Assembly: GCA_017592665.1 (NCBI GenBank)
Contig: JAGFNW010000027.1
Location: 28,264 to 92,263 of the forward strand
From: Streptosporangiaceae bacterium NEAU-GS5
Lineage (GTDB): Bacteria > Actinomycetota > Actinomycetes > Streptosporangiales > Streptosporangiaceae
Length of the DNA stretch: 64,000 nucleotides
Reading direction: 5' to 3'
Shown: positions 29,103-39,683 of the stretch, piece after piece
Layout of the letters: each line of letters begins with the position of its first letter
Numbering within the stretch: position 1 is the stretch's first letter
Program-made: the position numbers and the translations under genes
Notes under the pieces: model-generated
What the model saw: only the letters and a program-made list of their open reading frames with translations
The model's database searches: none
What the model was told of the DNA's origin: nothing

Positions 29103-30170
29103 TCAGTAGCGTGCGATCAGCGCTAGCCCCTGCTCGGTCGCGAGAGCGCCATCGGTGACGAAGCTGACGAAGGCGCCCGTGGCCATCGCCATCTCGATGA
29201 TGTCGTCGACGGCGTCGTGAGTGTCGCCGGCCGGACCGGCGACGAAGTGGTCGCCCTCGAAGTGGCCGGGCGCGTGATAGCTCTCTTCGACGACGAGATG
29301 AGCGCCCCGGCCCTGCTCGACCAGCGGCCAGATCTCGTCGACCCCGGTGACGTACAGCTTCGCGCTGCGGGCCCGGTCGAGCTCCTCCATGACCTGGTCC
29401 TGGCGGCGGGCGACGTAGTCGGCGATCGCCGGCTCGACCACTTCGGCGATCTGGGCCGGGCTCGCGGAGTCGTAGTTGCCGAGGACGCGCTCGGTGACCC
29501 GCTTGCCGAGGCCGCTCACCTCGTCGAGAAAGGCGTGATAGCGGTCCACGCCCAGCACGATGAGGGGCAGGTCGTCGTGCTTGACGACCTGCTCGGTGGC
29601 GTCGGCGACCTGCCGGAAGAACTGCCGGTGCCGCTCGTCGCGATGGGCGGAGGGGTTGATCCCCAGCCCGCCCGGCAACTGCTGAGCGCCGCCCGGACCT
29701 GTATGCGTCAGGGGGAAGCCGTCGCCGTGGATCTCCCGCACCTGGTCGCCGCTGCCGAGGAACATCCTCGTGTCGTTCTCCGACAGCGCGAGCACCCAGT
29801 AGTGCCGGGCCCGGTCGTAGGCGCGGACCAGATCACGGGTGTCGAACGTGTCGGCCAGAACGACCCGCTCGCCCACGGTGAACGGCAGGCTGAACGCGTG
29901 ATGTTCGCCCTCGGCGGCGTACAGTGCCAGCGCGTCGAGAGGGCGGAGGGTCGCCGACATCTCGGCCGCCTGCTCCAGCTCGGCCATGATGCGGCGGGCG
30001 CATTCCTTGTCGGTACGCTCGGTGAGCTGCCGCTCCGCCTCGGCGAGCAGGTTGCCCAGCCGGATGGGATCCTGCGCGTTCTCCGGGGCGTGCCGATGAG
30101 CCGGCATGAGCACGCTGACGGCAGGAGTGCTGTGGGGCTGCTGCAGCTTGATGATCTGATCGCGGTCCAC
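29103..30170 (-). CDS. release-factor-like (baeRF/eRF1-Pelota-like) domain protein, hypothetical
   Basis: 355 aa. Blocks 'VSVLMPAHR', 'TRMFLGSGDQV', 'LIVLGVDRY', 'AKLYVTGVDEIWPLVEQGRGAHLVVEE' and 'DDIIEMAMATGAFVSF' resemble the bacterial eRF1-like fold. Assigned from memory of the family, not a search. Confidence 0.5.
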   Translation of the reverse strand: MDRDQIIKLQQPHSTPAVSVLMPAHRHAPENAQDPIRLGNLLAEAERQLTERTDKECARRIMAELEQAAEMSATLRPLDALALYAAEGEHHAFSLPFTVGERVVLADTFDTRDLVRAYDRARHYWVLALSENDTRMFLGSGDQVREIHGDGFPLTHTGPGGAQQLPGGLGINPSAHRDERHRQFFRQVADATEQVVKHDDLPLIVLGVDRYHAFLDEVSGLGKRVTERVLGNYDSASPAQIAEVVEPAIADYVARRQDQVMEELDRARSAKLYVTGVDEIWPLVEQGRGAHLVVEESYHAPGHFEGDHFVAGPAGDTHDAVDDIIEMAMATGAFVSFVTDGALATEQGLALIARY

Positions 30171-30255: not shown

Positions 30256-31122
30256 TCATGCGCCATCAATGCCGGCGCTATGCCGCAGAACTCGTTGCCC
30301 ATGCGGATCCACCACAGCCGTCACCAGATCGCGCACTTCGGGAGCGTGTAGGTAGTTCCTGACGAGATGAAAGTCGAACCGATGGATCCGCAATGGGTCA
30401 TGTTGCTCCACATTGTCGAAGCGACTGCGGAGATCGAATGGCAGCGCGACCAGATCGCCGACGTCGGCGAGGTTGATCCAGCGGCGTACCCCCGGCGGCC
30501 GCCCGCATCGGTCATTCATCGGACCGGGCTGAAGCCGTTGAAAGATCACCTTGTTCATGCCTAGCGGACTGCCGAGGGTGATCAGAAGGTCGACCTTGGG
30601 ATCGGGCTGTGCCCAGAGCGCCTCGTAGGCTATGACGCTGCCCAAAGAGTGCGCGATCACCACCTGAGCTTGATTGGCGCGGATGGTTTCGGCGACCGTG
30701 GTGCGAGCTCTTATGCGGAACGACTCATCGCGAGGGCTTAGATAGGTGGCGACCTCGCGGACGAATGTGGTCCCCAGCCGCCGAGCGGTCGTGCCGTAGC
30801 GCTCAGTCAGCCATTCGGCGGCCTGCCGCACCTTCGCTGTGGCAGGCCCTTGCGAGGTGTGCGGCACGCCCATGAGCGACTCCACCCAGGCGACCAGCAA
30901 CTCCTGCTCTTCAGGCTCCAGCAGCGTCACGTCGTCCACGCCTTGCGCCGTACCCCGGTGCAACACGTCCGCGTAGTACGACACCGTAACTCGCGGCGCG
31001 GATTCAACCGACAGCCACCTGCTCCAGTCTTGGCTGATGGCCTCAGTAGCGGCATGCACCGAACCATGTTCGATCAGGTAGGAGTAGTTCCCGATCCCAT
31101 GGACCCCGACAATCCGAGTCAC
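30256..31122 (-). CDS. alpha/beta-hydrolase (lipase/esterase-like, PGAP1/DUF676-like) with GxSxG nucleophile
   Basis: 'VGVHGIG' N-terminus, nucleophile elbow 'AHSLGSVIAYEAL', 'ITLGSPLGM'. Lies 85 bp upstream of, and co-directional with, the release-factor-like gene. Confidence 0.7.
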   Translation of the reverse strand: MTRIVGVHGIGNYSYLIEHGSVHAATEAISQDWSRWLSVESAPRVTVSYYADVLHRGTAQGVDDVTLLEPEEQELLVAWVESLMGVPHTSQGPATAKVRQAAEWLTERYGTTARRLGTTFVREVATYLSPRDESFRIRARTTVAETIRANQAQVVIAHSLGSVIAYEALWAQPDPKVDLLITLGSPLGMNKVIFQRLQPGPMNDRCGRPPGVRRWINLADVGDLVALPFDLRSRFDNVEQHDPLRIHRFDFHLVRNYLHAPEVRDLVTAVVDPHGQRVLRHSAGIDGA

Positions 31123-31333
31123 GCCTTCTCCTCGTCTGATATGAGGTGTGCGAATCGACCGTGCGTCATGGTCGAGGCTCGTCTATCCAGAACGAATCAG
31201 GCAATCACCACTCTTACGAAAGTTCATAATTTCCACTCACTTTCAAGGTGCGTCGACCATAATAGAATCCGACCGACTGCGGCGGAAGCGTAGCTGGTCA
31301 TTTCACATCACCTGGTTGTGGAGGTTAGCCAGC
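31123..31333. promoter_or_regulatory. AT-rich divergent promoter region between the alpha/beta-hydrolase operon and the flotillin/STAND operon
   Basis: About 210 bp at roughly 45-50% GC against a background above 70% ('ttacgaaagttcataatttccactcactttcaagg', 'ccataatagaatcc'). RBS GGAGG lies 9 nt before ATG 31334. Confidence 0.5.
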
Positions 31334-32668
31334 ATGAGTGGGGCGTGGGTGGCTTTATTGGTGATTGTGGGACTGCTGTTACTCGCGGCTCTGGTTCTCA
31401 GGCATTGGTGGGAGACTCCGTCGCCGCAGCATGCGGTGGTTTTTCCGGGGAGCGGGTTCGGCAAGAGCGGCGATGCCGCGAATCTACGTGTCGTGGTCGG
31501 GCGTCCGCGACTGGTCCTGCCACCACGCCGCCACCGCGGGCGACTGAATCTCGGGACGCGCAATATTGAAGTGACGCTCGACTGCATGACGAATCAGGCA
31601 TTAAGGGTGAGAGTGGTAATCAGTATCACATATCGGGTCGGTAATTCTCCCGAGCAGATCCGGCGCGCGGCACTGCGATTCCTGAAAGACCCGGAGAGGC
31701 TGCTGGAGGTGGCCGTCAAGAATCTTGTCCAGCACAACGTGCGTACCGTGGTCGGTGAGGGTCCATACACGGCCCTGGTCCTGAATCTGGGAGAAGTCAA
31801 CGGAAAGGTCAAGGAGCGCATCCGCCAGGACTTTCAAGCCTTCGGCCTGGTGCTCGAGAACGCGGGCTTCGTCACCATCGATGATGTGGACGGGCACGGC
31901 ACGGCGTTACGCCGAGCGGCGGAGGTGGAGGCCGAGCTCAAGAAGGTGGAAGCCGACCAGCGGTTGCTGGTCGAAACGGCCCGCGCGCGAGCCGAGGCCG
32001 CGGCGGAAGTGCACGATCACAACGTGCGCTCCCACGCACTGAGCCTGGAGATCGCCACGCTTGAGGCGGATCTGGAGCGTAAGAAGCAGGAGCTCGCGGC
32101 TCGAAACATTCAGCTCGACAAACAGGACGAGTTGAGTAAGGCCCAGATCGATCACAAGATCCAGGTCCTCCATGTCGACACACGCAGCTATGAAGTCAAA
32201 CGGCGTATTGATATGGAGAGGGCCGAGCGCGAGGCCCGGAATGCGACGGACATCGAGTTGCGTCACGCGCTCGACCGGGCCGACGCGGAGAAGGGGATGG
32301 TGGAGGCCAAAGCCGAGGCCGTCCGGATTAAGGAGCGAGTCCAGGGCCTCACACCCGCGGAGGCGCAGGCGTTGATCACCCTTGAGCTCGCCGGGAAAAT
32401 GGACAAGATAGCTGCCGCGGCGAAGGTGGAGCTACCCAGCCTGGAACGGGTGATCACGTCGAGCAGCGACTCCAAGACCCTGCTCGACAACCTGATCGGA
32501 TTCGGGCTCCCGATCGCCGAGATGGTGGGCGAGATGTTCAGCCGAATGCGGGAGGCCGACCCGGCCAAGACGATCACGACGGTCGTTCAGCCGGAGATCC
32601 AGCCGCCCACGAAGCATGCCGATGAGGGACAGGCCGACGGGCGTGACGACATGCCCTCCTCCCAATGA
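31334..32668 (+). CDS. flotillin-like SPFH/band-7 domain membrane protein
   Basis: N-terminal TM 'MSGAWVALLVIVGLLLLAALVL', SPFH core ('LRVVVGRP...ALRVRVVISITYRV...QDFQAFGLVLENAGFVTIDDV') and a long Glu/Ala/Arg-rich coiled coil, as in FloT/flotillins. ATG at 31334 in track ORF 31148..32668. Confidence 0.85.
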   Translation: MSGAWVALLVIVGLLLLAALVLRHWWETPSPQHAVVFPGSGFGKSGDAANLRVVVGRPRLVLPPRRHRGRLNLGTRNIEVTLDCMTNQALRVRVVISITYRVGNSPEQIRRAALRFLKDPERLLEVAVKNLVQHNVRTVVGEGPYTALVLNLGEVNGKVKERIRQDFQAFGLVLENAGFVTIDDVDGHGTALRRAAEVEAELKKVEADQRLLVETARARAEAAAEVHDHNVRSHALSLEIATLEADLERKKQELAARNIQLDKQDELSKAQIDHKIQVLHVDTRSYEVKRRIDMERAEREARNATDIELRHALDRADAEKGMVEAKAEAVRIKERVQGLTPAEAQALITLELAGKMDKIAAAAKVELPSLERVITSSSDSKTLLDNLIGFGLPIAEMVGEMFSRMREADPAKTITTVVQPEIQPPTKHADEGQADGRDDMPSSQ

Positions 32669-35600
32669 CCACGGGTCCGACGGCACGGGCAATTGTGATC
32701 GCGATCACGGGGTTCGTCTCGGACCGCTGGTCGGCCCTGCCGTTCGCCGCCGCCCGCGCGTACGCCATACGGCGCGCCCTGCTCTCGCACGGATATCACT
32801 GCGTGACGCACATCACCGCGAGACTCACGTCCGCCGAGTTCGGCACGCTGGTACGGAACGAACTTCGCCGCGCCGGGCCAGATGACACCCTTCTTATCCA
32901 TATCCTCACGCATGGCGACATTGCCAACAAAAGCGTCCTGTACGCCCTGGGCAGCGATGGCCTCCGTCACCCCGACACGGACGTAGAGGCGTGGATCAGG
33001 ACAGTACAGAACGTCGACGGCCACCCCTTCACCCTGTTCTTGCTCGATATGTGCTACGGCGGGACGATGGCCCGGCTCTCGTGGCAGGCGAGCATCGGCC
33101 GCGCCGACACGCGAGCCTGGGTCATCGCCGCCTGCCAGCCGGACGAGGCGGCTTTCGACGGCCGCTTCAGCCAGGCCGTGGCCACCGTGCTCGACCTGCT
33201 GAGACAGGGCGACCTCGAGATCGACCCAAGCCACGCGTATGTGCCGTTCGGCGCGATCGCCCGCGCCATCCGGCAGGAGGTGAACCGGCTCGCAGGAGAT
33301 GGCCTGCGCCAACAGGTCACCGCCACGAGCGAAGATCCCGGAGATGAGGCCGCGGCGCCTCCCTTTTTCCGCAACACGGCTCACACACGCAGACGCCTCC
33401 CGGAACCGGCGAGCCAGGGGCCGGCCGACGGGGGTGCCTGGATCGTGGCGTACTTCGCCGACCAGGCGGCCGGAGCGGCGGTCTCCGGCGAAGGGGGGGC
33501 GGACCGGCCGAGAGCGGGCCGTTTCACTGGACGCAGAGATCAGCTCGGTCATCTGGCACCCTGGGTCAACCGCCTGACGGCAGGTGATCTCGCCGTGGTC
33601 ACCGGTGGCCCTGGCAGCGGCAAATCGGCACTGCTCGGCGTGCTGGTGTGCGCCGCCCATCCACTGTTGTACGCGACGGCACGGGATCTGCTGGCCGAGG
33701 TGACCCCCCTGCCCGCGCCTGTGCTCGACGGGTTCGCCGCGGTGCACGTGGCACAACGCGGGCTCGCCACGGTGTGCGACGCCATCGGACGGCAGCTGGG
33801 GCTACCCGCGGATCTCTCGGCCGACGAGCTGATCGAGCGGGTGCTTGAACGCGACCGCCCACCGGTATTGGTGATCGACGGGCTCGACGAGGCCGACGAC
33901 GGGCCGGCCATCATGCGGCGGCTGCTGCTTCCCCTGGTGAGCACGCGACGTCCCGACGGGTGGGCCGCAGCGCGGCTGCTGGTAGGCAGTCGCACATACG
34001 AGGAGTTCGAGCCGCTGCTCGAACGCGCTCGCGTCGCCGGCAATCTCATCGACCTTGACGTCGTGCCACCTGAGGACCTGCGCAAGGACCTTGCCACGTA
34101 CATATTTCGGTTGCTTCAGGACGAGCCGGCCTACCTGCGGCACGGCGCCGTGCAGGGCGCGTTCGCCGGCGCCGTGGCGGAGACTCTCACAGCGCCGCAT
34201 GGAAAAGGGCGGCAGCAGGGGGAGTTCCTCGTCGCCGGACTGTACACACGTCATTTCGTCGCCGCACACGCTCACGCTCCCATGACCGACCCAGATCGGG
34301 CCCGGGCGCTGGGACAGCGCGCGCCGAGAACGCTGGCCGAGGTGTTCGAGTTGGACATCGCGGATCGGCCTGCCTTGCGCGAGCTGCTGACCGTTCTCGC
34401 CACGGCGCGTGAACCCGGCATGCCAGTCGGCGTACTGTTCCGGATGATCACCGCCGGGCAACGTCCAGGCAGGGGCGCGAGGACAGGAACGAGCGCTGAG
34501 GTGACGACGGGCTCGCCGGCAGAAACGGGCGCCGCCGCGGACCGCATGACCATCGGACGAGTACGCGCGATGCTGCGCGAGGGTCGGCATTACCTGCGTC
34601 AGTCGACCGACACGCGGGACGGCACCACCCTCTATCGCCTATTTCACCGCAGCTTGATCGACCACCTCGCCGTGCCGGGGATAGCAGGCGACAGCCTGGA
34701 GGCGATGCTCGGGATACTGGGGCCGGCGTCCGCCCGTGACTGGGAGATGGCCGAGCCATACCTGCTCGATCACGCATGGGCATACGCGGTCGCCGCCGGA
34801 CGCGCGGCCGAGTTGCTCGATGATCCCGAATACCTGCTGAATCTCACTTCCGGGCCGCTGACGGCCGTCCTGCGAGAAGCCGGAGATCTCCCGCTCCTGT
34901 CAGCGTTCGCCGAAGTCCCGCCGATCGGGGCGGCGCCGCTGTCGGAACGGCGGTATGCGCTGGCCCTCGCGGCCGCCCGGGCGGACCGCACGCAATTCGC
35001 GGCACGCGCCGCGCGGCCACCCACCACGCAGCCGCTGCCGTGGCAACCTCTCTGGTCGAAGGGAACGCCCGTCGCGGCTGGATCACCGAGTGCGTCCACG
35101 GCCTCGCCTGCGTCCGTGCCGGCTCCGCCCTCGCCGGCCGGCGATTTCGAGCTGGCCAAGAGCAGAAGGAAACAGGAGGTCCAGGCGCTGGCCACGGCCT
35201 CGATCGAAGGGCGGCCCGTTCTCGCGGCGGCCGGCGACGACGGCCGAATACAGCTTTGGGATCTCGCCTCCCGGAAGGTCTCACTGCCACCGCTCACCGG
35301 CCACGCCGGGTCCGTGAATGCGATCGCCTGCTTCACGACGGGCGGACGGGCGAAGGCCGTCACGGCCGGATCCGACGGCACCTTACGGATATGGGACCTG
35401 GCCAGGCGGCAGTCCGAGCACATCTGGAACCTTGGTCAGGAGAGTTTTCTGCGCGGCGTGGCGTGCGCCTGGGTCGGCGACCAACAGGTAGCGGTAGTGG
35501 CCAGCGGTGACGGCTGGCTTCGCATGTGGGACGTGGTCCAGGGACGGCCCGTCGGCGGGCGGCTGGGCGAGCGGCCGGGCATTCTCACTGGTGTGGCCTG

Positions 35601-36738
35601 CGCGCAGGCTCACGGCCGTGCCGTCGCCGTCACCACGGACGAGGACGGGGAGGTGTCCGCAGTCGATCTCGGGAGTGGCGAGGTGATCGGCCGGCACGAG
35701 TATGCGCACGACGGTTCCGCGCGCGCGGTGGCCTGCACCGCGGCGGCCGATCCCCCGCTGGTCGTGACGACCGGCGACGGCGGCGTGATCCGTGTCTGGA
35801 AGCTGACCGACACTCTTGTCCCCCTCTTCAAGCTCACGGGACATCGGGACACGGTCGAGGCGGTGGCGTGCGCCACGCTTGGCGGCCGGGACGTGGTGAT
35901 CAGCGGCGACGTCGACGGCAGGGTCATCGTCTGGGATGTGGCGGAGGGGGTTCAGATCTACCAGGCTCGGCTGCGCCGCGGCTTGGTTCGGGCCGTGGCC
36001 GGCACCCTTCTCGGCACACGACCCTTCGTCCTGACCGCCGCTTCCGGGGGCGCGCTGGCCGGGCGGGATTTGAGCGAAGCGCTGTCCGGCCGGCAAGCAG
36101 CCGAGCGATCGACCGGCAGCGCGGCGGCTGCGGCCCCTCGTGGCGTCCAGATCACCCGGCTCGACGTCTTGAGTGATGAGACCGTGCGCCTCGTCTTCGC
36201 GCACGCCGGCGCCATCATTGTGGACCCGCGAACTGGTAAGGCCATCGACGGCGAGGTGGCCATGCGGGAACCCGCCGCAAATCCGCGGCAGGACGATGAC
36301 TCCCCCGTTGCCGCGACATCCGCGACGTTCTCCTTGCATGGTCGCACTATGGTGGCCGAGGTCGGTGACGACCCTCGGACCCTGCGGCTACGCGAAGCGA
36401 CATCCCACGCTCCATCACGCCCCGTTGATGATCATGGGCGCCCGTTGGGCCGTCACGAGAGCCGCATAACGACGGTGTCGGTCGCCAAGCCGGTTGGTGG
36501 CGCACCGCCCCTGCTGTTCAGCGGTGACGTGGACGGCACCGTGCGGGTCTGGGATCCGGTGCACGGGCGTGCAATGCCGGGCTTCACCTTGCCGGGGGAG
36601 ATCGTCGGTATCACGCCGCTGCGAGGGGAACTGGTCCTGGTCGACATCGGCGGTGAGATCATCGCGCTGCACCGTGCCACGACCACCGAGCACCGCGCAT
36701 CCGCCGATGGAACGGGACCCAGAGCGTCGGTCACATAA
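32665..36738 (+). CDS. caspase-like (peptidase C14) / NACHT ATPase / WD40 beta-propeller STAND protein
   Basis: 1356 aa. ATG overlaps the flotillin stop (ATGA 32665-32668). Caspase His 'IHILTHGD' (H83) and Cys 'FLLDMCYGG' (C130). NACHT Walker A 'VVTGGPGSGKS' (~aa 315) and Walker B 'PVLVIDGLDEADD' (~aa 405). From about aa 835 onward, at least 12 WD40 repeats ('RIQLWDL', 'TLRIWDL', 'WLRMWDV', 'VIRVWKL', 'RVIVWDV', 'TVRVWDP'). Confidence 0.9.
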   Translation: MTTGPTARAIVIAITGFVSDRWSALPFAAARAYAIRRALLSHGYHCVTHITARLTSAEFGTLVRNELRRAGPDDTLLIHILTHGDIANKSVLYALGSDGLRHPDTDVEAWIRTVQNVDGHPFTLFLLDMCYGGTMARLSWQASIGRADTRAWVIAACQPDEAAFDGRFSQAVATVLDLLRQGDLEIDPSHAYVPFGAIARAIRQEVNRLAGDGLRQQVTATSEDPGDEAAAPPFFRNTAHTRRRLPEPASQGPADGGAWIVAYFADQAAGAAVSGEGGADRPRAGRFTGRRDQLGHLAPWVNRLTAGDLAVVTGGPGSGKSALLGVLVCAAHPLLYATARDLLAEVTPLPAPVLDGFAAVHVAQRGLATVCDAIGRQLGLPADLSADELIERVLERDRPPVLVIDGLDEADDGPAIMRRLLLPLVSTRRPDGWAAARLLVGSRTYEEFEPLLERARVAGNLIDLDVVPPEDLRKDLATYIFRLLQDEPAYLRHGAVQGAFAGAVAETLTAPHGKGRQQGEFLVAGLYTRHFVAAHAHAPMTDPDRARALGQRAPRTLAEVFELDIADRPALRELLTVLATAREPGMPVGVLFRMITAGQRPGRGARTGTSAEVTTGSPAETGAAADRMTIGRVRAMLREGRHYLRQSTDTRDGTTLYRLFHRSLIDHLAVPGIAGDSLEAMLGILGPASARDWEMAEPYLLDHAWAYAVAAGRAAELLDDPEYLLNLTSGPLTAVLREAGDLPLLSAFAEVPPIGAAPLSERRYALALAAARADRTQFAARAARPPTTQPLPWQPLWSKGTPVAAGSPSASTASPASVPAPPSPAGDFELAKSRRKQEVQALATASIEGRPVLAAAGDDGRIQLWDLASRKVSLPPLTGHAGSVNAIACFTTGGRAKAVTAGSDGTLRIWDLARRQSEHIWNLGQESFLRGVACAWVGDQQVAVVASGDGWLRMWDVVQGRPVGGRLGERPGILTGVACAQAHGRAVAVTTDEDGEVSAVDLGSGEVIGRHEYAHDGSARAVACTAAADPPLVVTTGDGGVIRVWKLTDTLVPLFKLTGHRDTVEAVACATLGGRDVVISGDVDGRVIVWDVAEGVQIYQARLRRGLVRAVAGTLLGTRPFVLTAASGGALAGRDLSEALSGRQAAERSTGSAAAAAPRGVQITRLDVLSDETVRLVFAHAGAIIVDPRTGKAIDGEVAMREPAANPRQDDDSPVAATSATFSLHGRTMVAEVGDDPRTLRLREATSHAPSRPVDDHGRPLGRHESRITTVSVAKPVGGAPPLLFSGDVDGTVRVWDPVHGRAMPGFTLPGEIVGITPLRGELVLVDIGGEIIALHRATTTEHRASADGTGPRASVT

Positions 36739-36802
36739 TCCCTGTCGGGCCTACCTCAGCTATTGGCACGACCGCCGCGGACCAGCACGAACCGTCCTTG
36801 GC

Positions 36803-38308
36803 TCATTGTGCGAGTTCCACCGTCGGCATCCCGGTGAGGGCGATGAGAGCTTCGGCGAAGGCGTTGAGCGCTGCGGGGGAAACGTCGCCGGGCGACACGT
36901 CGGGTGAGATCTGCACGGTCAGGCCTCCTCGCGCATTGGCGCGTATGCCGATCCGCGTCGCGTCGAGGCCGACGATGACGCGGAACCAGGTTCGAACAGT
37001 TTCGTCCAGATCGTCGGTGAGCGGCAGGGGTGCCATCCGGTCGGCACCGACCGACTCAAGGATCGTCCACTCCTGTCCGCCGAGCTCGTCCAGTAACCGG
37101 GGGATGTCAGTGCTGACGACATAAAGGCAGCGCATCCCGACCCGAGACGCCGACCCCGTATGACAACCGGCCACCAAGGACCCCACCCCGAACGACGTCA
37201 GGGCCGCATTCACCCGAGGTGACTTGACGAAGTCCTTCGGCAGTCGCCAGGCAACGCTCAGTTCGATCAATTTGGTATCGGCGGAGTGGTGTATGGAGGC
37301 GCCGTTCACCACCCTGCCGTCGAGGGCGGGCGCGGCCATCGCGATCACCTGCTCGGCCACCGAATCGAGGTCTCCTGCTCTGAGGGCACTCAAGACCGGT
37401 CCCCACGCATCTGCATGTAGGTGGCCGAGCAACTCCCAGGCACACCCGCTGAGAATCGCTTGACGGGTGCGTTCACGGTGTTCCCGGGTCTCGGACCCGG
37501 GACAGGCCGCGACCAGGCCTTTGATCAGGCATGCCGCCAGTGGACCGAGATACGACCCGATTTCCGCGACGGGCACGCCGTAGTCACGGGCGCGGCGATG
37601 CAGCGTGTCCAGATCGCAGTCGGCCTGCGCGATCCAACCCTCGACGCGCAGGCGTTCCATGGCGCTGCCGGTGCCGTAAAGCGAGGGCAGCGCGCGAGCC
37701 AACCGCGTCAGTCCCTCCGCATGCTCGCGGATCTGGGTCAGGACGGCCGAGCGCCTGGCTTCGCGGCGCAGTTCGCTATGCGGATCACGCTCGATGACCG
37801 CGGACTCCACTCCCACGATCTCCAGGAAGCCGCCTGCCAACGTCGTCGCCCACTGCTCGACGATCGGAGCGATCTCGAAGCCGTGCCGTCTGACCTGCTC
37901 GTAGTCGAGATCAGCGAGTAACCTGCGAACGCGTCCGTCGAACTCGTTACGCAGCGTGGCCTCGTCCGTGAGCGTGCCGATGTCGTATTCCTCGACCCAT
38001 TCGATCAGTTCCTCGTCGTCGACGAAGGCCAGCCGCACCAGCGCGGTGACGGACAGTTGGACGAGCGCGCCGTCTCGCAGCCGAATCTGCGGGATCGTCG
38101 ACGAGTGGCGTACGACGCTCCGACTGAAGGTGACGATTTCGAGATGGCCGAGCAGCGGAACCCCGGACAGCGGGCCATGACGCCCCGGGCCGAGGACTCG
38201 GCGGCGAGGCCGGCCGTTGTGTTTGACCACCACACGTTCTGACGCGTCAACGGGGAATGCGCGCCTCGGCCATTCCTCCCAGGTGATCAGTAACCCAAGT
38301 GACATCAT
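36803..38308 (-). CDS. soluble SPFH/band-7-like domain protein with large C-terminal helical region
   Basis: N-terminal region 'VVVKHNGRPRRRVLGPGRHGPLSGVPLLGHLEIV...IRLRDGALVQLSVTALVRLAFVD...GGFLEIVGVESAVIERDP' follows the SPFH consensus. No TM segment. Convergent with the STAND gene, 64-bp gap. Confidence 0.6.
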   Translation of the reverse strand: MMSLGLLITWEEWPRRAFPVDASERVVVKHNGRPRRRVLGPGRHGPLSGVPLLGHLEIVTFSRSVVRHSSTIPQIRLRDGALVQLSVTALVRLAFVDDEELIEWVEEYDIGTLTDEATLRNEFDGRVRRLLADLDYEQVRRHGFEIAPIVEQWATTLAGGFLEIVGVESAVIERDPHSELRREARRSAVLTQIREHAEGLTRLARALPSLYGTGSAMERLRVEGWIAQADCDLDTLHRRARDYGVPVAEIGSYLGPLAACLIKGLVAACPGSETREHRERTRQAILSGCAWELLGHLHADAWGPVLSALRAGDLDSVAEQVIAMAAPALDGRVVNGASIHHSADTKLIELSVAWRLPKDFVKSPRVNAALTSFGVGSLVAGCHTGSASRVGMRCLYVVSTDIPRLLDELGGQEWTILESVGADRMAPLPLTDDLDETVRTWFRVIVGLDATRIGIRANARGGLTVQISPDVSPGDVSPAALNAFAEALIALTGMPTVELAQ

Positions 38309-38372
38309 CGCTCATTTCACACGCGGCCAGTGAGACCGGCCCGGCGGCGCTCACCGGAACGGTTTCGCCTCG

Positions 38373-39683
38373 TCACATTTCCCGGGTGTACAGATCGTCA
38401 TCTGCCATGCGCCGCAACCGGCGTGATCGCTGCTCCTGGTAGTACCGGTCGTCGGCGAGCTCGAGCCGGGCCATGTCGCGCATGTGCCGTCCGCGCTCGC
38501 GCATTCTTGTCCGCGCATTCGCGATCTTCTCGTCCTTGGTGAGGATGCGCAGCTCGGAGGCTTCCTCCAGCTCGGCCTCCCGGGCGGCGAGCAGATTCTC
38601 GTAAGGGCTTTTCCCGCCACTTCCCATGAGCGCCTTCCCGGCCACCGGAAGAACGTCGACCAGAATGATCAGCAAGGCGAGCACGAGATGGCGGAAGAAC
38701 ACCGAAGTGTGCTCACCACTCAGCGTCGACAACGCCTCCATACGAATGAGCAGTCCGTCGACCTCACGGTTGGCCGACTCCTCCAACGCGATTCTCTTGT
38801 CACGGTCGGCCTCGAGTTCGCGTTGTTTCAGACGCAACCTCTCTTCCTCTTCTTTGAGCGAGCGATCCTCGGCTGCTATCTTCTGGTCGATGCCCTTCAG
38901 CGTCGCGTTGAGATCGCGGACCGTATCCTGCTGGTCTCGCATCTGACTCTTCTTCTGTAGGGCCGAAGGGCCCTCGCCGGGAAGATGAGTGTTACTCTTG
39001 CCATCGATCTCATCGTCAAGCCTGGTCTGCAGCTTGTCTAGCTGTTCACCGGCATCCTTGATCTTTTGCTCCTGTCCCGCATGCTGATGCCGCAATTGCC
39101 GCAGGCGTTCCGAGGGCTGTCCGGCCGCCTTTATCTGCTGGTCCAGCGCGTTTATCTGCTGTGTTAGGTCGCTTCGGCCGACTGCCCTGTCGGCCTCGTC
39201 CATCCGCTCCCTCCTGATGGCGGCGACCTCGGCGGTTACCTCGGGCTCGAAGATGACCAGGATGAGCGGCTCGGAGATCGTTAGCCCCAAGATCACTGAC
39301 AGGAAAAGACGTGGAGCCAACGCCCCGATTTTCGCCTTACCGGACATCTTGGACCGATAGCTAGATACGAGCCACCGGTCAAGATTGAATATCGCGACAG
39401 CCCACAGCGCGCCAACGATCGCATTCACGGCGAAAGATGTCTTGAACGCCAAGGAGACAGAAACCACCATCGCCGTGCCGGCCATCACTGCCGTGGTGAC
39501 GACCCCGCCCCCCAATCCCTGATATCGGGTCGTCTCGGCTCGTGGACACCGGTCGAGTATGTCGCGGTCAGCACCGCTCGCAAAGATCATGAATCGCTCG
39601 ACGAAGCCGCGAGGGCCCTTCAAGCGGACCGGGGTGATGGATGAACGCATATCGGCGGACCCATTCACCGAATTGAGCGACAT
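38373..39683 (-). CDS. DUF4407-like membrane protein with long coiled coil
   Basis: N-terminus 'FASGADRDILDRCPRAETTRYQGLGGGVVTTAVMAG...FNLDRWLVSSY' matches the DUF4407 pattern (LSGA...P.ER.R...G..IL). Then 3 TM and about 200 aa of Glu/Arg/Gln coiled coil. Start uncertain (three in-frame Met). Confidence 0.65.
   Translation of the reverse strand: MSLNSVNGSADMRSSITPVRLKGPRGFVERFMIFASGADRDILDRCPRAETTRYQGLGGGVVTTAVMAGTAMVVSVSLAFKTSFAVNAIVGALWAVAIFNLDRWLVSSYRSKMSGKAKIGALAPRLFLSVILGLTISEPLILVIFEPEVTAEVAAIRRERMDEADRAVGRSDLTQQINALDQQIKAAGQPSERLRQLRHQHAGQEQKIKDAGEQLDKLQTRLDDEIDGKSNTHLPGEGPSALQKKSQMRDQQDTVRDLNATLKGIDQKIAAEDRSLKEEEERLRLKQRELEADRDKRIALEESANREVDGLLIRMEALSTLSGEHTSVFFRHLVLALLIILVDVLPVAGKALMGSGGKSPYENLLAAREAELEEASELRILTKDEKIANARTRMRERGRHMRDMARLELADDRYYQEQRSRRLRRMADDDLYTREM

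Follow-up and report, generated by a model that had tools for sequence, protein, structure and literature searches.

A five-gene actinobacterial island in which a DUF4407 membrane protein and a soluble SPFH-like protein adjoin a caspase-STAND gene

Bacterial gasdermins and other protease-activated membrane effectors are reportedly placed under caspase-like or STAND proteases. The SPFH fold is found in the HflK/HflC-FtsH system and in the SPFH-NfeD pairs (QmcA-YbbJ, stomatin-STOPP). In plants, HIR proteins, which are also SPFH proteins, associate with NLR receptors such as RPS2 and are linked to cell death (Qi et al. 2011, as cited in PMC13534476). According to Kaur et al. (2020, PMC7159879), the EACC1-caspase system is an actinobacterial, membrane-associated pair of genes, the 5' gene encoding the single-transmembrane (TM) EACC1 protein and the 3' gene a protein with an N-terminal caspase and variable C-terminal domains. 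The present analysis concerned an island of five genes in 9.5 kb (positions 30256-39683) in a 64,000-nt stretch of DNA from Streptosporangiaceae bacterium NEAU-GS5, hereafter the window, to which all coordinates refer unless a locus is named. The island holds genes for a caspase-like/STAND/WD40 protein (the STAND gene), a flotillin-like Band_7 protein, a serine alpha/beta-hydrolase, and a pair consisting of a DUF4407 membrane protein and a soluble SPFH-like protein. As in the EACC1-caspase system, a membrane protein is followed by a caspase fusion in an actinobacterium, and the sole NCBIfam caspase match was to the EACC1-associated type. The stop codon of the Band_7 gene overlaps the start codon of the STAND gene by 4 bp, and the two genes are translationally coupled.

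DUF4407 and close SPFH-like genes were found together in five loci: the window, Acrocarpospora catenulata (L001), an SRA contig (L002), Actinomadura graeca (L003) and a 1.3-kb JGI contig (L026). The full arrangement, in which the DUF4407 and SPFH-like genes run in one direction and meet the STAND and Band_7 genes running in the other, was present in A. catenulata and A. graeca. The SRA contig carried the pair with a cut downstream open reading frame (ORF) corresponding to the WD40 end of the STAND protein, and the JGI contig carried the pair. The close SPFH-like gene was preceded by a DUF4407 gene in 5/5 loci. In the four loci with called genes the spacing ran from +64 bp, the gap in the window, to -4 bp (an overlap); outside the window it ranged from a 13-bp gap to the overlap. 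From this tight spacing and the constant gene order the two genes are predicted to form one operon. Wherever flanks could be seen, the STAND gene lay convergent beside the pair (4/4 loci), and the Band_7 gene was upstream of it in 3/3. The surrounding genes differed in every locus and identities were congruent over four proteins (54-67% to A. catenulata, 31-45% to A. graeca), which together indicate that the block moves as a unit. An initial annotation of this DNA had placed the four genes together as one locus, and that association recurred outside this genome in A. catenulata, A. graeca and the SRA contig. The hydrolase gene, missing from that description, is the fifth gene of the island.

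Other searches gave few further copies. A word-index homologue search with the 501-aa SPFH-like protein returned the protein itself and one orthologue only, and a 16-sequence profile gave the same two; a profile search of genome contigs with a narrow alignment re-found only Acrocarpospora. A metagenome scan with DUF4407 yielded 7 loci, none with an SPFH-like neighbour. No system-level assignment of the island proteins was obtained from NCBIfam.

The second gene of the pair encodes a 501-aa protein that matches J5X84_32040 with 100% identity. By sequence alone this protein was borderline for Pfam Band_7 (PF01145), scoring 22.4 bits over residues 20-147 (E=1.4e-4), below the gathering threshold of 23.6, and Band_7 was matched by 5/16 aligned family members at E<=0.1 (best 1e-6). 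The family profile matched flotillin-2 in the PDB (E=0.0011). An AlphaFold2 (AF2) model built on the family alignment had a mean pLDDT of 85.6, and when it was compared with the PDB using Foldseek, ranks 1-34 were all SPFH proteins (best E=2.5e-6), including flotillin, HflK/C, erlin, stomatin, QmcA and major vault protein. Because the borderline Band_7 score, the family profile match and the confident model with its Foldseek matches all point the same way, the N-terminal ~175 residues are assigned as an SPFH domain. This fold call is not itself new, the Acrocarpospora orthologue being labelled 'SPFH domain-containing protein' by NCBI. The family is very small, with 15 clusters found among 1.84 billion representatives in an exhaustive HMMER scan.

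The SPFH-like protein has no TM segment or N-terminal hydrophobic stretch (maximum 19-residue hydropathy 1.54). Its distant relatives P0007 and P0009 carry their own N-terminal TM helix, which fits the idea that here the anchor is supplied in trans. In the monomer model the SPFH domain is followed by one 36-residue helix, then by a compact bundle and an alpha/beta domain. The initial annotation had described an SPFH-like N-terminus without a TM segment and a large C-terminal helical domain. Structure prediction and fold searches agreed with the former and returned no competing fold for it; the latter held for residues 176-330, whereas residues 352-501 were modelled as alpha/beta and not helical. 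No Pfam match was obtained with the isolated helical or C-terminal domains of this protein, or with the isolated caspase region of the STAND protein. KH-type nucleic-acid binding was considered for the C-terminal domain and not adopted, the GXXG loop being absent. The helical bundle contains a moderately hydrophobic helix, IGSYLGPLAACLIKGLVAA (aa 250-268, hydropathy 1.54; 37505-37561, minus strand). P0003 and P0004 are likewise hydrophobic in the corresponding region, and the helix could present a membrane-facing or partner-facing surface.

The first gene of the pair was recovered as DUF4407, as had been proposed, with Pfam PF14362 at E=6.3e-69 (233 bits, cut-off 31.3) and the whole profile (1-297 of 297) aligned to residues 41-369. 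The AF2 model was all-helical (mean pLDDT 81.5). The initial annotation had given this protein about 3 TM helices and a coiled coil of about 200 residues; its membrane and coiled-coil character was upheld, while hydropathy and the model indicated four TM helices, three before the coiled coil and one after it, and a hairpin somewhat shorter than first estimated (Table 1). Hydropathy peaks were located at aa 61-79, 83-101 and 126-144. The conserved positions cluster in cytoplasmic motifs close to the membrane, namely SGAD..L..CP, FNLDRW, TISEPL and GGxSxYxNLLAARE, the last within the C-terminal motif LPxxGKxLMxxGGxSxYxNLLAARE. The tip of the hairpin is Gly-rich and conserved (G228, G236, G238), while the remaining coiled coil is variable. 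A Foldseek search of the PDB with the model gave no solved-structure relative (best E=0.06). Resemblances to Vipp1/PspA, XaxA and ABC exporters were rejected as generic helical matches, none being below E=0.06. In unannotated Lak megaphage (Prevotella) records, weak tblastn matches (31% identity, E=2e-5; hits H13-H18, e.g. MK250016.1 25740-26153) were seen to the N-terminal TM region of DUF4407 (aa 28-164).

Table 1. Genes of the island and predicted domains of the DUF4407/SPFH-like pair (window coordinates)
Feature	Position	Strand	Remarks
Serine alpha/beta-hydrolase, 288 aa	30256..31122	-	Divergent from Band_7 gene
Flotillin-like SPFH (Band_7) protein, N-terminal TM helix and coiled coil, 444 aa	31334..32668	+	
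Caspase-like protease/STAND (AAA_16/NACHT-like) ATPase/WD40 protein, 1357 aa	32665..36738	+	
Soluble SPFH-like protein, 501 aa	36803..38308	-	Second gene of pair; convergent with STAND gene
SPFH domain (aa 8-175)	37784..38287	-	
Helical bundle (aa 176-330)	37319..37783	-	
C-terminal alpha/beta domain (aa 352-501), tandem KH-like topology, no GXXG motif	36806..37255	-	
DUF4407 membrane protein, 436 aa	38373..39683	-	First gene of pair; upstream of SPFH-like gene
DUF4407 TM helices 1-3 (aa 48-144), invariant FNLDRW and TISEPL motifs	39252..39542	-	Hydropathy, model, alignments
DUF4407 antiparallel coiled-coil hairpin (aa 146-324), ~180 residues	38712..39248	-	Model helices 146-226, 239-324
DUF4407 TM4 (aa 326-354) and long basic (arginine-rich) C-terminal helix (aa 360-435)	38379..38708	-	Hydropathy, model, alignment

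The flotillin-like protein matched Band_7 at E=3.3e-13 and the FloT model at E=2.4e-11, far below the cut-off of the latter, and has a TM helix at aa 4-22 and a coiled coil of its own. The STAND protein gave Pfam matches to AAA_16 and WD40 and has no TM segment. Its N-terminal domain matched NCBIfam caspase_w_EACC1 (NF047832) at E=1.8e-7 (30.9 bits, cut-off 140), and its profile matched caspase-1 in the PDB at E=0.0034, aligned through the His motif. The motifs H83-G84 and D128-x-C130-x-x-G133 were invariant in 5 STAND homologues, and on these residues the domain is a putative caspase-fold (clan CD) peptidase with an intact catalytic His/Cys dyad. In the hydrolase, the HG oxyanion motif, the AHSLGS nucleophile elbow, D220/D223 and H252 were all invariant; its Pfam matches (PGAP1, Abhydrolase_6, Hydrolase_4, LCAT) were weak and all below threshold. 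The 288-aa protein is classed as a predicted alpha/beta-hydrolase by its motifs. Since the caspase dyad and the hydrolase triad are intact, both enzymes are probably active.

The ORF coordinates and strands given in the initial annotation, the tandem 64-bp gap within the pair and its convergence with the STAND gene were all reproduced. A further 64 bp separates the stop codons of the STAND and SPFH-like genes. The DUF4407 and SPFH-like ORFs were accepted as real genes because both have coding periodicity in the GC content of third codon positions (GC3) and homologues in other genomes. The island is compositionally distinct, its genes having a GC content of 0.60-0.70 and a GC3 of 0.74-0.80 as against a GC3 of 0.88-0.90 in the flanking genes used for comparison (baeRF_family3 and alcohol-dehydrogenase). 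The baeRF_family3 (release-factor-like) gene (29103-30170, minus strand; Pfam E=5e-43; native GC3 0.90) abuts the island. The divergent intergenic region between the hydrolase and Band_7 genes (31123-31333) is 211 bp long and AT-richer, and no sigma-70-type promoter consensus was found in it. The sequence GGAGG occurs 10 nt upstream of the Band_7 ATG at 31334, and a longer GTG-initiated Band_7 ORF from 31148 is probably an over-extension. A promoter and terminator scan gave no signal above shuffles, and neither att-like direct repeats flanking the island nor a nearby tRNA gene was found.

Copies of the STAND and hydrolase genes were also found together without the membrane genes. By coordinate comparison, STAND homologues adjoined hydrolase homologues in 10/10 records of a plasmid collection, and the same neighbourhood was seen in L003, L023, L024 and L025, the hydrolase being a constant neighbour of this STAND family on both plasmids and chromosomes of actinomycetes. 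Plasmids of Streptomyces, Embleya and Arthrobacter carried the two genes and none of the three membrane genes, one such unit sitting between a Tn3 transposase and an integrase. Band_7, DUF4407 and SPFH-like genes were absent from all plasmid STAND-hydrolase loci, and the plasmid collection as a whole held no SPFH-like and no Band_7 homologue. This recurrence implies that the caspase-STAND-WD40 protein and the hydrolase constitute a widespread core, to which the DUF4407, SPFH-like and Band_7 genes are a clade-specific addition, gained together. Together the two genes appear to make up an independent mobile system. In Actinomadura the hydrolase homologue lies at the other edge of the block. Further hydrolase copies (L023 11161-12054, L024 5781-6710, L025 12693-13475, L028 7989-8837) were often translationally coupled to the STAND gene, and some were named 'serine peptidase' by PGAP.

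Both families of the pair recurred in other conflict-type neighbourhoods. In one Prok-JAB/ThiF operon, part of an island with SIR2, integrase, DUF4238 and nSTAND genes, a DUF4407 gene showed translational coupling to the gene for the E1-like protein ThiF. Elsewhere DUF4407 genes followed STAND and kinase genes upstream of a ClpB-like ATPase, followed vWA and kinase-like genes, were adjacent to or fused with a kinase, or lay between NYN and PP2C/FHA genes on a conjugative Rhodococcus plasmid. At L014 7167-10115 (also L013 and L015) the DUF4407 homologue was split over two ORFs, the second combining its C-terminal part with a Ser/Thr protein kinase; these ORFs are either frameshifted or a genuine DUF4407-kinase fusion. 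A distant SPFH-like member stood directly after ThiF in another JAB/ThiF operon, and the DUF4407 and SPFH-like families thus occupy the same slot in two such operons. The two are unrelated metagenomic operons (L018 5400-9437 and L004 1490-5914), in which the ThiF stop codon is overlapped by a DUF4407 gene in one case and by an SPFH-like gene in the other.

Further distant SPFH-like members were found with a DO-GTPase2-like protein and a ~950-aa HerA/TraG-like ATPase, after a ~800-aa HerA-like (DUF87) ATPase beside a type I restriction-modification (R-M) system and a relaxase gene, and near CHAT proteases. In this set (L004 4355-10263, L008 10001-20168, L009 10001-15528, L006 3-4449, L027 1-3301) the SPFH-like gene was accompanied either by a HerA/TraG-like P-loop ATPase of ~950 aa and a protein of ~330-390 aa, which in L008 is DO-GTPase2-like, or by a ~800-aa DUF87/HerA-like ATPase and a ~190-aa protein, with CHAT, vWA, type I R-M and relaxase genes nearby. 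The set looks like an undescribed conflict system. Neighbourhoods comparable to those of both families are described for NTP-dependent conflict systems in PMC7159879.

The DUF4407 and SPFH-like proteins most likely form one membrane-associated complex, in which DUF4407 would supply the membrane anchor and a coiled coil and the soluble protein the SPFH oligomerisation domain. With confidence about evenly divided, this complex and the flotillin-like protein are proposed to be an accessory membrane platform or effector of the caspase-STAND/hydrolase system. A small Streptosporangiales clade would have added the pair and the Band_7 gene, as an accessory membrane module, to a mobile STAND-hydrolase conflict system. 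In the proposed mechanism the SPFH proteins would build a membrane platform that gathers the STAND protein and DUF4407. The WD40 domain would sense the invader and the STAND protein would oligomerise, whereupon the activated caspase domain may cut either a scaffold protein or DUF4407 at its basic C-terminal helix. Alone or together with the hydrolase, DUF4407 would then compromise the membrane, leading to abortive infection or programmed cell death; a role in sensing the membrane instead of damaging it is also conceivable.

Several observations weigh against this proposal. The block is known from a small sample of five loci, all or mostly Streptosporangiales, and the linkage could reflect one island inherited whole and not functional dependence. 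The hydrolase was absent within the 17.7-kb Acrocarpospora locus. Viral contigs contained no DUF4407 or SPFH-like homologue, and PADLOC 2.0 (Avs, bNACHT and others) matched no defence model to the island, giving only weak coiled-coil and repeat matches. By the positive-inside rule the DUF4407 coiled coil is predicted to be extracytoplasmic, which would leave only the N-terminus, TM2-TM3 loop and C-terminal helix of DUF4407 within reach of the SPFH-like protein in the cytoplasm. No paper giving a function for DUF4407, or an experiment on it, was found in the literature searched.

The initial annotation had correctly placed two SPFH proteins, one membrane-anchored and one soluble, on either side of the caspase-STAND gene, and had paired both with coiled-coil membrane proteins. 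This pairing applied to the soluble protein, with DUF4407, and failed for the left-hand protein, which has a TM helix and a coiled coil within its own chain and no separate partner. The arrangement had been likened there to HflK/HflC and to NfeD-partnered stomatins. On such a reading the two SPFH proteins would co-assemble into a cage that encloses or gates the caspase-STAND protein, with DUF4407 analogous to NfeD. The occurrence of two SPFH-fold proteins within one conserved block is in keeping with a cage, as are the joint presence or absence of the Band_7, DUF4407 and SPFH-like genes (none being found in the plasmid STAND-hydrolase loci), the coupling of Band_7 to the STAND gene, and the cage formers HflK/C, flotillin, erlin, stomatin and QmcA among the Foldseek matches. 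Nevertheless, a comparison of the two SPFH families by hhalign was not significant (probability 1.9%), on which ground a recent paralogous origin of the two was dropped as well. The soluble protein has no TM segment, leaving a single TM anchor between the two in place of an HflK/HflC-like pair, and the operons are convergent. The helices after the SPFH domain fold as a bundle and not as a long wall helix, a weak point since the model is of a monomer. The STAND protein, without a TM segment, with 1357 aa and an oligomerising ATPase domain, is an unlikely cage content, and with a soluble protease, gating inside a membrane cage lacks direct support. The common partner of the STAND family is a serine hydrolase and not an SPFH protein. 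Pfam scans of the island genes revealed no FtsH, and those of the island genes and their neighbours no NfeD; DUF4407 had no detectable fold similarity to solved structures, NfeD proteins included. A cage is therefore considered improbable, and neither the HflK/HflC-like pair nor the NfeD-type partnering of the initial annotation was retained.

It is rather unlikely that two or three independent systems are simply neighbours in a defence island, the STAND and hydrolase genes (with or without Band_7) lying beside a separate DUF4407/SPFH-like system with its own trigger. Such independence would suit the stand-alone mobile STAND-hydrolase units seen elsewhere, the ability of DUF4407 and SPFH-like proteins each to join other systems without the other, and the two convergent operons, which are hence not co-transcribed. 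Yet the pair was never found without an adjoining STAND gene in the four loci with flanks, despite their differing surroundings, the divergence of all four proteins is congruent, and two non-enzymatic proteins alone would have no obvious sensor or switch. A housekeeping role in membrane organisation or envelope stress (flotillin microdomains, PspA-like repair), with the STAND gene a chance neighbour, is very improbable. SPFH proteins are generally membrane scaffolds, and the DUF4407 hairpin resembled Vipp1/PspA weakly and below significance in Foldseek (E about 0.3), both of which would accord with housekeeping; the extreme rarity and patchy distribution of the SPFH-like family, the atypical GC content, the unrelated flanks in each genome and the recurrent conflict-type neighbours argue otherwise. 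The accessory membrane platform or effector of a caspase-STAND/hydrolase system is accordingly the preferred explanation.

The conserved five-gene block, the rarity and architecture of the soluble SPFH family, and the recurrence of both families in conflict-type operons are new. In the literature searched, no relevant paper linked SPFH proteins to prokaryotic immunity or anti-phage defence, save a passing mention: by a term search of PMC7159879, Band7-like domains appear once, as effector-position domains of vWA proteins, and the term DUF4407 does not appear. If the block is one system, it would give a first functional handle on DUF4407 and establish a soluble SPFH family that is very rare and combines domains in a new way; it would also mean that bacterial STAND/NLR-like sensors can recruit flotillin-type platforms, as plant NLRs do with HIR proteins. 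With five genes in so short a segment, the system is directly testable in Streptomyces. A wider generalisation is possible, though doubtful: SPFH scaffolds may be built-in parts of bacterial NLR-like caspase-STAND immunity, a prokaryotic counterpart of plant HIR-NLR, with the DUF4407/SPFH-like pair forming a new class of effector acting on the membrane, or of sensor of its integrity, that plugs into E1/JAB, kinase/PP2C and HerA-like ATPase/DO-GTPase systems.

Compared with the systems named at the outset, the island shares with HflK/HflC-FtsH and SPFH-NfeD the presence of SPFH proteins, here two of them and a protease in one locus. It differs in that one SPFH protein is soluble, no paralogy is detectable, the operons are convergent and NfeD and FtsH are missing; the protease is a cytoplasmic caspase-STAND-WD40 protein and the partner is DUF4407. 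The EACC1-caspase system has a different 5' protein, that of the island being a 444-aa flotillin-like protein with a Band_7 match only, and the caspase score of 30.9 bits falls well short of 140; the island also adds DUF4407, SPFH-like and hydrolase genes. As with gasdermin systems, the gene for a membrane-acting protein adjoins that for a caspase-like protease joined to an NTPase and a repeat sensor, and the logic would be the proteolytic release of an effector. However, Pfam scans of the island proteins gave no gasdermin family, the candidate effector is an integral protein with four TM helices, and the cleavage is hypothetical. In the shoulder of major vault protein (Foldseek E about 1e-4) a soluble SPFH fold is likewise followed by helices, whereas the bacterial protein lacks the repeats of major vault protein and has a different C-terminal domain. 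Between plant HIR-NLR and the island the link differs in kind, being physical and functional in plants and genomic here, with no sign of common descent; in both, SPFH membrane scaffolds are tied to a STAND/NLR-type receptor, and by analogy the plant association is a suggestive parallel to this block.

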